Notes under the pieces: generated by a model
Database searches by the model: none
Told to the model about the DNA's origin: nothing
The model's input: the letters and a program-made list of their open reading frames with translations, nothing else
Translations under genes and position numbers: made by a program
Origin: Enterobacteria phage CUS-3
Sequence record: FN394991.1
DNA length: 2,827 bases
Direction: 5' to 3' (one strand)
Part shown: positions 1-2,827 of the stretch, piece after piece
Numbering within the stretch: position 1 is the stretch's first letter
How the letters are laid out: each line of letters begins with the position of its first letter

Positions 1-438
1 ATGGCGCGCCCAACGAAGTATCAAGAGGCGTATGCCGAACAGGCACGCAAACTGTGCTTGCTGGGCTATACAGACGCCGAACTCGCGGACTTCTTTGAAG
101 TTAGCGAGGCAACAATCAACAATTGGAAATTGGAATATCCGGAGTTTTTAGAGTCCATAAAAAAGGGTAAGGCAGTCGCTGATGCAGAAGTTAGTGATCG
201 TCTTTATCAACGCGCTATGGGCTTCGTGGCTCCAGACATCGATATTCGTGTTATTGAAAACAGAATTGTCGAAACTCCTCTTGAGAAGTATTACCCGCCT
301 GATACAACCGCTGCCATTTTCTGGCTTAAGAACCGACAGAAGGATAAATGGCGCGACAAGGTTGATCACGAGCTAACAGGCAAAGACGGCGGCGCAATCC
401 AGATTGAAACATCACCGATGAGCACTCTGTTCGGAAAA
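1..438 (+). CDS. Phage terminase small subunit-like protein with N-terminal HTH DNA-binding domain; 3' end unresolved (runs into N-run 439-538; candidate stop TGA 541-543 only if gap length is exact)
   Basis: Seen: ATG at 1, frame 1 open for 146 codons with no stop before the N-run; frames 2 and 3 have early stops here (e.g. TAG at 146-148 in frame 2), so frame 1 is the coding frame. Translation MARPTKYQEAYAEQARKLCLLGYTDAELADFFEVSEATINNWKLEYPEF... has the R-P-T/S-x-Y start, a helix-turn-helix-like stretch (about nt 52-126) and a basic C-terminal part (FWLKNRQKDKWRDK). Recalled from memory, not searched: this matches the architecture of Sf6-type terminase small subunits. GC about 57% in the first 60 nt. 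Confidence 0.55.
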
Positions 439-538
439 NNNNNNNNNNNNNNNNNNNNNNNNNNNNNNNNNNNNNNNNNNNNNNNNNNNNNNNNNNNNNN
501 NNNNNNNNNNNNNNNNNNNNNNNNNNNNNNNNNNNNNN

Positions 539-1762
539 TCTGAGCCATGTGTAAAATATTATGATGGCATTCTGTATCTGACGACCAGGGGGACATTAAG
601 TACTCAACCCGGTAGTTCATTGCACAGAAGCTCTGATTTAGGTACATCATGGAATTCTCTTCGCTTCCCAAATAATGTTCATCACTCAAACCTTCCTTTT
701 GCCAAAGTTGGCGATGAGCTGGTTATTTTTGGCAGTGAGCGCGCATTTGGTGAGTGGGAAGGAGGAGAACCTGATAACCGTTATGCAGGAAATTATCCAA
801 GAACATTTATGACCAGAGTTAACGTCAATGAGTGGAGTCTGGATAATGTAGAGTGGGTTAATGTTACTGATCAGATTTATCAGGGCGGAATAGTTAACTC
901 TGCGGTTGGTGTTGGTTCAGTTTGTATCAAAGACAACTGGCTGTACTACATTTTCGGTGGGGAAGATTTTCTAAACCCATGGAGCATAGGGGATAACAAC
1001 AGAAAATATCCTTATGTTCACGATGGTCACNNNNNNNNNNNNNNNNNNNNNNNNNNNNNNNNNNNNNNNNNNNNNNNNNNNNNNNNNNNNNNNNNNNNNN
1101 NNNNNNNNNNNNNNNNNNNNNNNNNNNNNNNNNNNNNNNNNNNNNNNNNNNNNNNNNNNNNNNNNNNNNNNNNNNNNNNNNNNNNNNNNNNNNNNNNNNN
1201 NNNNNNNNNNNNNNNNNNNNNNNNNNNNNNNNNNNNNNNNNNNNNNNNNNNNNNNNNNNNNNNNNNNNNNNNNNNNNNNNNNNNNNNNNNNNNNNNNNNN
1301 NNNNNNNNNNNNNNNNNNNNNAGCGGCGGTGAAACAACGTCTTCAGCAGATGGTGCAATGATAACGTTGCATGGTTCCAGAAGCAGTACTCCACGTCGCG
1401 CGGTATATAACGCACTCGAACATCTTTTTGAGAACGGAGATGTTAAACCTTATCTTGATAATGTAAATGCTCTTGGTGGTCCGGGAAACAGGTTCTCGAT
1501 AGTTTATCTTGGCTCCAATCCTGTGGTTACCAGTGACGGAACATTAAAGACAGAGCCGGTCTCTCCTGACGAAGCATTGCTGGATGCCTGGGGTGACGTC
1601 AGGTATATCTCTTATAAATGGCTGAACGCTGTCGCTATAAAGGGGGAAGAAGGGGCGAGGATACATCATGGTGTAATCGCGCAGCAACTTCGTGATGTTC
1701 TTATTTCTCACGGACTCATGGAAGAAGAAAGCACAACATGCTGCTATGCCTTTCTTTGCTAT
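539..1762 (+). CDS. Endosialidase (endo-N-acetylneuraminidase) tailspike protein, partial: catalytic beta-propeller region plus C-terminal region; interrupted by N-run 1031-1321; true start and stop not visible
   Basis: Seen: frame 2 is open with no stop across 539-1030 (164 codons) and 1322-1762 (147 codons); the 291-nt N-run between them is a multiple of 3, so phase is preserved. The first piece carries an Asp-box S-S-D-L-G-T-S-W at 629-652; its translation ...GSERAFGEWEGGEPDNRYAGNYPRTFMTRVNVNEWSLDNVEWVNV...CIKDNWLYYIFGGEDF... is beta-rich and propeller-like. The second piece contains T-S-D-G-T-L-K with Ser at 1532-1534 and Lys at 1547-1549. Recalled: similarity to K1-phage endosialidases (K1F endoNF, CUS-3 tailspike). 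This ORF is absent from the supplied track, probably because no in-window stop terminates it. Confidence 0.7.
629..652 (+). other. Asp-box motif (S-x-D-x-G-x-T/S-W) of a sialidase beta-propeller
   Basis: Seen: codons agc tct gat tta ggt aca tca tgg = S S D L G T S W in the tailspike frame. Established: Asp-boxes are the hallmark repeat of sialidase propeller blades. Confidence 0.6.
1532..1762 (+). other. Start of C-terminal intramolecular chaperone / autoproteolysis domain (peptidase S74-like) of the tailspike; cleavage Ser 1532-1534, catalytic Lys 1547-1549; domain continues into the N-run
   Basis: Seen: S-D-G-T-L-K with Ser and Lys five residues apart, followed by ...RYISYKWLNAVAIKGEEGARIHHGVIAQQLRDVL... 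Established: endosialidases, K5 lyase and T5 tail fibres carry a C-terminal chaperone domain released by Ser-Lys dyad autocleavage. Only about 77 residues after the Ser are visible. Confidence 0.6.
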
Positions 1763-2179: not shown

Positions 2180-2827
2180 ATGTCGTTTTCCGTTGATGAT
2201 AATGGGTCAGGTAATATTTTTGTATGTGGAGATCTTGTAAATAGCAAAGAGAATAAAGTTCAGTTCAATGGAAACAATAACAAACTTATTATAGAAGATG
2301 ATGTTGAGTGTCGATGGCTTACCGTAATATTTAGGGGTGATAATAATTACGTAAGAATACATAAAAACAGTAAGATTAAAGGTGATATTGTCGCAACAAA
2401 AGGTTCAAAAGTTATTATCGGTAGAAGAACGACAATAGGTGCAGGTTTTGAAGTCGTCACTGATAAGTGCAATGTTACAATTGGCCATGACTGCATGATA
2501 GCAAGAGATGTTATTTTGCGTGCATCAGATGGGCATCCTATATTTGATATTCATAGCAAAAAAAGGATTAATTGGGCAAAAGATATCATTATATCTAGTT
2601 ACGTATGGGTAGGGAGAAATGTCTCTATAATGAAAGGGGTATCTGTTGGAAGCGGATCTGTCATTGGGTATGGGAGTATTGTAACTAAAGATGTGCCATC
2701 TATGTGTGCAGCAGCCGGTAATCCAGCAAAAATAATAAAAAGAAATATAATATGGGCAAGAACGGATAAAGCGGAGCTAATTAGTGATGACAAGAGATGC
2801 TCCAGCTATCATGCGAAGCTCACGCAA
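2180..2827 (+). CDS. neuO: Polysialic acid O-acetyltransferase NeuO-like (hexapeptide-repeat acetyltransferase); 5' end probably lies in masked region 1763-2179; 3' end runs off the window
   Basis: Seen: frame 2 open for 216 codons from ATG 2180 to the window end with no stop. Translation MSFSVDDNGSGNIFVCGDLVNSKENKVQFNGNNNKLIIEDD...IGRRTTIGAGFEVV...VTIGHDCMIARDVILRASDGHPIFD...VWVGRNVSIMKGVSVGSGSVIGYGSIVTKDVP...GNPAKIIK shows repeated [LIV]-G-x4 hexapeptides (about 2414-2700) and a D-G-H-P motif (His codon 2534-2536) typical of the LacA/Maa/NodL O-acetyltransferase family. Recalled: close match to NeuO of prophage CUS-3. GC roughly 25-37% in sampled 60-nt lines versus about 57% at the window start. 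Confidence 0.75.
   Translation, partial: MSFSVDDNGSGNIFVCGDLVNSKENKVQFNGNNNKLIIEDDVECRWLTVIFRGDNNYVRIHKNSKIKGDIVATKGSKVIIGRRTTIGAGFEVVTDKCNVTIGHDCMIARDVILRASDGHPIFDIHSKKRINWAKDIIISSYVWVGRNVSIMKGVSVGSGSVIGYGSIVTKDVPSMCAAAGNPAKIIKRNIIWARTDKAELISDDKRCSSYHAKLTQ

Follow-up and report, generated by a model that had tools for sequence, protein, structure and literature searches.

An apparent reading-frame clash between terS and the tailspike gene in a prophage CUS-3 record is almost certainly an artefact of a placeholder spacer

Gene fragments and spacers in the window

The window – the whole 2,827-nt stretch of record FN394991.1, named Enterobacteria phage CUS-3 – contains four fragments of determined sequence, all read on the plus strand, and three runs of N, at 439–538 (100 nt), 1031–1321 (291 nt) and 1763–2179 (417 nt). 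The fragments belong to terS (the gene for the small terminase subunit), to two internal parts of siaK1 (the endosialidase tailspike gene) and to neuO (the gene for the polysialic acid O-acetyltransferase). All four are colinear on the minus strand of the complete CUS-3 genome (CP000711), with identities of 93–99.7%. CUS-3 is described as a prophage of E. coli K1 RS218 (King et al. 2007 J Bacteriol 189:6447, cited in PMC8653822).

The first fragment (1–438) is the coding part of a terS of the CUS-3/P22-like kind, comprising 146 codons from the ATG to K146, with the stop codon omitted. Its product matches PHROG 309, 'terminase small subunit', with E = 4e-67, and finds no family match in Pfam at E <= 1e-3. 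In CP000711, it corresponds to 22705..22268 on the minus strand, within a CDS spanning 22705..22265.

The two following fragments both come from siaK1. Fragment 1 (539–1030) covers codons 487–650 in the catalytic β-propeller, and both Pfam and the mapping to CP000711 (4013..3522, minus strand) identify frame 2 as its true frame, which is free of stops throughout 539–1030 and whose translation starts SEPCVKYYDG... The match to PF12217 (End_beta_propel; E = 3e-104) extends over profile positions 192–355 of 367, so that the fragment begins in mid-domain. Its sequence is 100% identical to that of the related record FN395002 and to those of eight of the listed E. coli genomes. Fragment 2 (1322–1762; CP000711 3230..2790, minus strand) covers codons 748–894, where the tail-spike/stalk domain ends and the C-terminal intramolecular chaperone domain begins, and matches first PF12219 (End_tail_spike; 6e-33) and then PF13884 (Peptidase_S74; 2e-12).

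The original prediction had offered, among other readings, that the tailspike is a 5'-truncated pseudogene. This is not supported: fragment 1 is made up of codons 487–650 of an intact endosialidase of 981 aa, and in the sibling records discussed below it is annotated as partial at both ends. The complete gene occupies 2526..5471 in CP000711, where it encodes the full 981 aa; in E. coli AF14 (NZ_OZ546925), the tailspike CDS measures 2,946 nt; and siaK1 is annotated as intact in both genomes whose gene tables were read (CP000711 and AF14). Judged from these alignments and annotations, the tailspike is an intact gene that was sampled internally, not a 5'-truncated pseudogene.

The fourth fragment (2180–2827) contains 216 codons of neuO and is partial at its 3' end, as indicated by its Pfam Hexapep match (PF00132) and by the annotation of sibling records. 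Positions 2183–2827 align with CP000711 2236..1592 (minus strand) at 99.7% identity. An endosialidase tailspike with neuO as a cargo gene downstream is thus what we find for CUS-3, from the matches to PF12217, PF12219, PF13884 and Hexapep together with the CP000711 mapping. The beginning of the gene nevertheless differs: the window reads ATGTCGTTTTCC (2180–2191), whereas CP000711 has ATGT-(TAAGACT)x19-CGTTTTCC (2372..2228, minus strand), so that the 19 AAGACTC repeats of neuO in the CUS-3 genome are missing from the window. On this comparison, the depositors evidently removed the whole phase-variable heptanucleotide (poly-psi) repeat and kept the ATG, and the in-frame neuO of the record is an edited construct. 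Since the repeat has been excised, the neuO reading says nothing about the ON or OFF phase state of the isolate.

The three N-runs are not alike. The one at 1031–1321 is an exact spacer that stands for 97 unsequenced siaK1 codons (651–747), which take up 291 nt both in CP000711 and in AF14 (locus 21018..21308). The one at 1763–2179 is likewise exact and bridges siaK1 fragment 2 and the neuO ATG, which are 417 nt apart in CP000711 (2789..2373). As these two lengths match the true distances, the reading frame is preserved across the second, 291-N gap. Only the 100-N run is a placeholder.

The end of terS and its overlap with terL

The terS CDS is 441 nt long in CP000711, in AF14 and in Salmonella phage NM-3, and in all three a TGA stands directly after ...TTCGGAAAA (TTC GGA AAA TGA), with terL, the next gene, beginning at an overlapping ATG (ATGA). 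Comparison of the TerS C-terminus with its homologues – a check that the original prediction had itself suggested – places the normal end exactly at base 438. The real end of TerS is thus, as read from these aligned genomes, base 438, and the genomic TGA that comes next overlaps the ATG of terL.

Solved structures bear on the same end. The phage Sf6 gp1 chains 3HEF and 4DYC (PDB) share the C-terminal ...GGAIQIETSPMSTLFGK (...SPMSTLFGK) with TerS, and in a PDB sequence search TerS residues 110–146 align end to end with residues 104–140 of the Sf6 gp1 chain. The likeness is confined to this part: only residues 110–146 align, and by phmmer the N-terminal two thirds of TerS have no detectable similarity to Sf6 gp1.

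The original prediction had also envisaged translational coupling or fusion of TerS with the tailspike. The partner of TerS is, rather, the gene directly downstream of it, terL. The 4-nt terS–terL overlap (ATGA) of P22-like phages occurs in the CUS-3, AF14 and NM-3 genomes, and both the stop codon and terL lie outside the window; the actual coupling at the end of TerS is with terL through ATGA, not with the tailspike.

The terS allele itself is 93.4% identical to that of CP000711 and 99.1% identical to that of AF14. It shows 98.9–99.3% identity to other P22-like phages and prophages (e.g. Salmonella phage NM-3 and E. coli 04-00955) and, among the matches listed, 93.2–93.8% identity to the CUS-3 records, including the reference genome; the window represents a genotype distinct from those of the sibling records among these matches. 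Most of the terS differences from FN395002 (22 of 30) cluster in 69–150, and the protein departs from that of the CUS-3 reference (CP000711) by four amino-acid changes: S37A, K41N, D45E and S50L. These sequence comparisons suggest that TerS is mosaic towards its N-terminus, with a recombinant patch there. Most E. coli copies of this TerS carry the RefSeq label 'hypothetical protein', an annotation gap for this type of TerS.

Fragment positions in complete genomes and the nature of the record

Prophage CUS-3 (CP000711) is a P22-like Lederbergvirus with the gene order terS, terL, portal ... ant, siaK1, neuO, int, and the fragments of the window follow the same order. The spacing, by contrast, is very different: in the contiguous CUS-3 genome, terS and siaK1 fragment 1 are separated by 18,254 nt with about 20 genes, where the window has 100 N. 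The closest complete genome is that of E. coli AF14, whose terS is 99.1% identical to that of the window and whose siaK1 fragment is 100% identical; there the two lie 19,574 nt apart on the same strand, and the genes between them include terL, portal, scaffold and coat. The distance is again 19,574 nt in NZ_OZ546911 and amounts to 16,078 nt in CUVET21-PYO5 (NZ_CP116948). In none of these four complete sequences (CP000711, OZ546925, OZ546911 and CP116948) are terS and siaK1 adjacent, their separation ranging from 16,078 to 19,574 nt; these distances were measured in relatives of the isolate. In both CP000711 and AF14, terS is followed directly by terL, and the tailspike lies at the far end of the late operon – the layout of P22-like Lederbergviruses.

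What the 100 N stand for is accordingly a large part of a phage genome: the terS stop, terL, the portal, scaffold and coat genes, the head-completion and ejection genes, immI-type genes (mnt, ant) and siaK1 codons 1–486. The premise of a boundary between TerS and the tailspike thus fails, as the two fragments are non-adjacent in every genome examined. The suspicion that the gap length is not exact was well founded but understated by some 180-fold, the 100 N standing for about 16–20 kb in the relatives. The genomes of these relatives also show both of the things that the original prediction had set against itself, namely that TerS has a clean stop with another gene starting behind it, and that the gap exceeds 100 nt.

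The window is, moreover, one of a series. Megablast searches of the phage collection with each unmasked segment yielded at least 17 GenBank records (FN394218 and FN394986–FN395002), named Enterobacteria phage CUS-3 and each 2,827 nt long, which have the same length, the same four fragments and the same fragment order as the window. Three of these records were compared directly, and the coordinates of their N-runs are identical to those of the window. All three carry the title 'partial proviral terminase gene, siaK1 gene and neuO gene', with genotypes GT_18 (FN395002), GT_10 (FN394994) and GT_11 (FN394995). Each has four CDS features: 1–438, partial at the 3' end; 539–1030 and 1322–1762, each partial at both ends; and 2180–2827, partial at the 3' end. 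The window differs from the three by 36–38 substitutions and no indels, with all four fragments colinear.

Taken together, these observations make it almost certain that the window is a composite multi-locus typing record of E. coli K1 prophage CUS-3 rather than a contiguous genome, and that the frame clash is a spacer artefact. Four separately sequenced fragments – terS, two internal pieces of siaK1, and neuO – would have been concatenated in prophage gene order. As the siaK1–neuO region is contiguous, its two spacers would have been given the lengths found in the reference genome (291 and 417 N), and terS and siaK1, which are far apart, would have been linked by a conventional 100-N run signifying a 'gap of unknown length'. 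That the run at 439–538 joins non-adjacent loci is borne out by the fragment mapping, the gene tables, the distances and the coordinates shared with the three sibling records. From the record titles and the layout, we infer that the four fragments are PCR amplicons joined for typing. The CUS-3 typing scheme is probably that of Mordhorst et al. (2009, Environ Microbiol 11:3154), to which PMC8653822 and PMC13001214 refer.

A draft assembly might leave a similar trace: the terS and siaK1 contigs would then be scaffold neighbours across an unsequenced gap of unknown size. The fragments do stand in true prophage order and orientation, and by NCBI convention, scaffold gaps whose length is unknown are written as 100 N. 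We nonetheless consider this origin very improbable, given that all the sibling records compared break at identical coordinates despite their differing sequences, and that the fragments begin and end precisely at codon boundaries, terS opening with its ATG and ending precisely with its final sense codon. The deliberate excision of the neuO repeat with retention of the ATG, and titles of the form 'partial ... gene ... genotype GT_n', are also unlike the output of an assembler. Were the record a scaffold after all, the conclusion would be unchanged: the gap length would still be meaningless and the clash still an artefact.

A deletion of about 18 kb in this isolate, placing the end of terS some 100 nt from mid-siaK1, is extremely improbable; it would reduce the tailspike gene to a 5'-truncated pseudogene next to TerS, and the masked bases would hide a novel junction. 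The joining bases are indeed masked in the window, and defective P22-like prophages with large deletions exist. Against such an event, at least 17 records, differing in strain and genotype, share the layout; 16–20 kb of structural genes lie between the two markers in all four complete genomes in which both were located; and one breakpoint would need to sit directly behind the final sense codon of TerS, the other precisely between two codons of siaK1.

The AF14 prophage (NZ_OZ546925.1 3809800–3834500), whose terS and siaK1 alleles match best, has some features of its own (locus 16702–22420). It adjoins torT, and an IS3 element within it splits ant into pseudogene halves, KilA-N and P22AR. Downstream of its tailspike, we find no match to neuO and only a short pseudogene remnant. 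A second copy of siaK1 is present elsewhere in the AF14 genome.

The frame relation at 439–543

The arithmetic behind the supposed clash is sound. With exactly 100 N, the TerS frame does run on to a TGA at 541–543 and the tailspike frame is already open from 539, as had been pointed out. Read without regard to the spacer, frame 1 is open from the TerS ATG (base 1) through the Ns to that TGA, giving an ORF of 1..543 that encodes 180 aa, including 34 X; this end follows from 100 mod 3 = 1. A spacer of the other length class that is not a multiple of 3 would make the TerS frame stop at codon 5 of the fragment, and a multiple of 3 would produce an apparent in-frame fusion. The frame relation depends only on the arbitrary length of the spacer, and the clash is therefore biologically uninformative, amounting to no more than chance. 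It would arise simply from carrying a reading frame over a spacer of meaningless length, with no mechanism behind it.

The triplet read as the TerS stop, TGA at 541–543 on the plus strand, lies out of frame across siaK1 codons 487 and 488 (tcT GAg) and is without function. Out-of-frame stops are dense in siaK1: the +2 frame has one in every 10 codons, the +1 frame one in every 20. Coupling or fusion of TerS and the tailspike – whether through overlap, re-initiation or a programmed frameshift – has practically no chance of being right. All that speaks for it is a coincidence of arithmetic, the tailspike fragment beginning 3 nt before the TerS frame ends. The mapping refutes it by showing terS and the tailspike gene to be non-adjacent, TerS has its own stop at a position conserved in homologues and solved structures, and the tailspike has its own start 1,458 nt (486 codons) upstream of base 539. 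With the window read as a composite of typing fragments, the TerS/tailspike boundary is no real feature, and 439–543 offers no biology to follow up.

The wider bearing of the case is on how such records are used. Runs of N in database records, especially those of a round 100, can join loci that are kilobases apart, and reading frames should therefore never be carried across them. The biology in this record – CUS-3, its endosialidase tailspike, the phase-variable neuO and the terS–terL ATGA overlap – is already well described.

A start codon and Shine–Dalgarno sequence for the tailspike fragment near 539 were also considered; the matter is moot, as the fragment starts at codon 487 of a gene for 981 aa. 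The ATG at 546–548 is out of the siaK1 frame.
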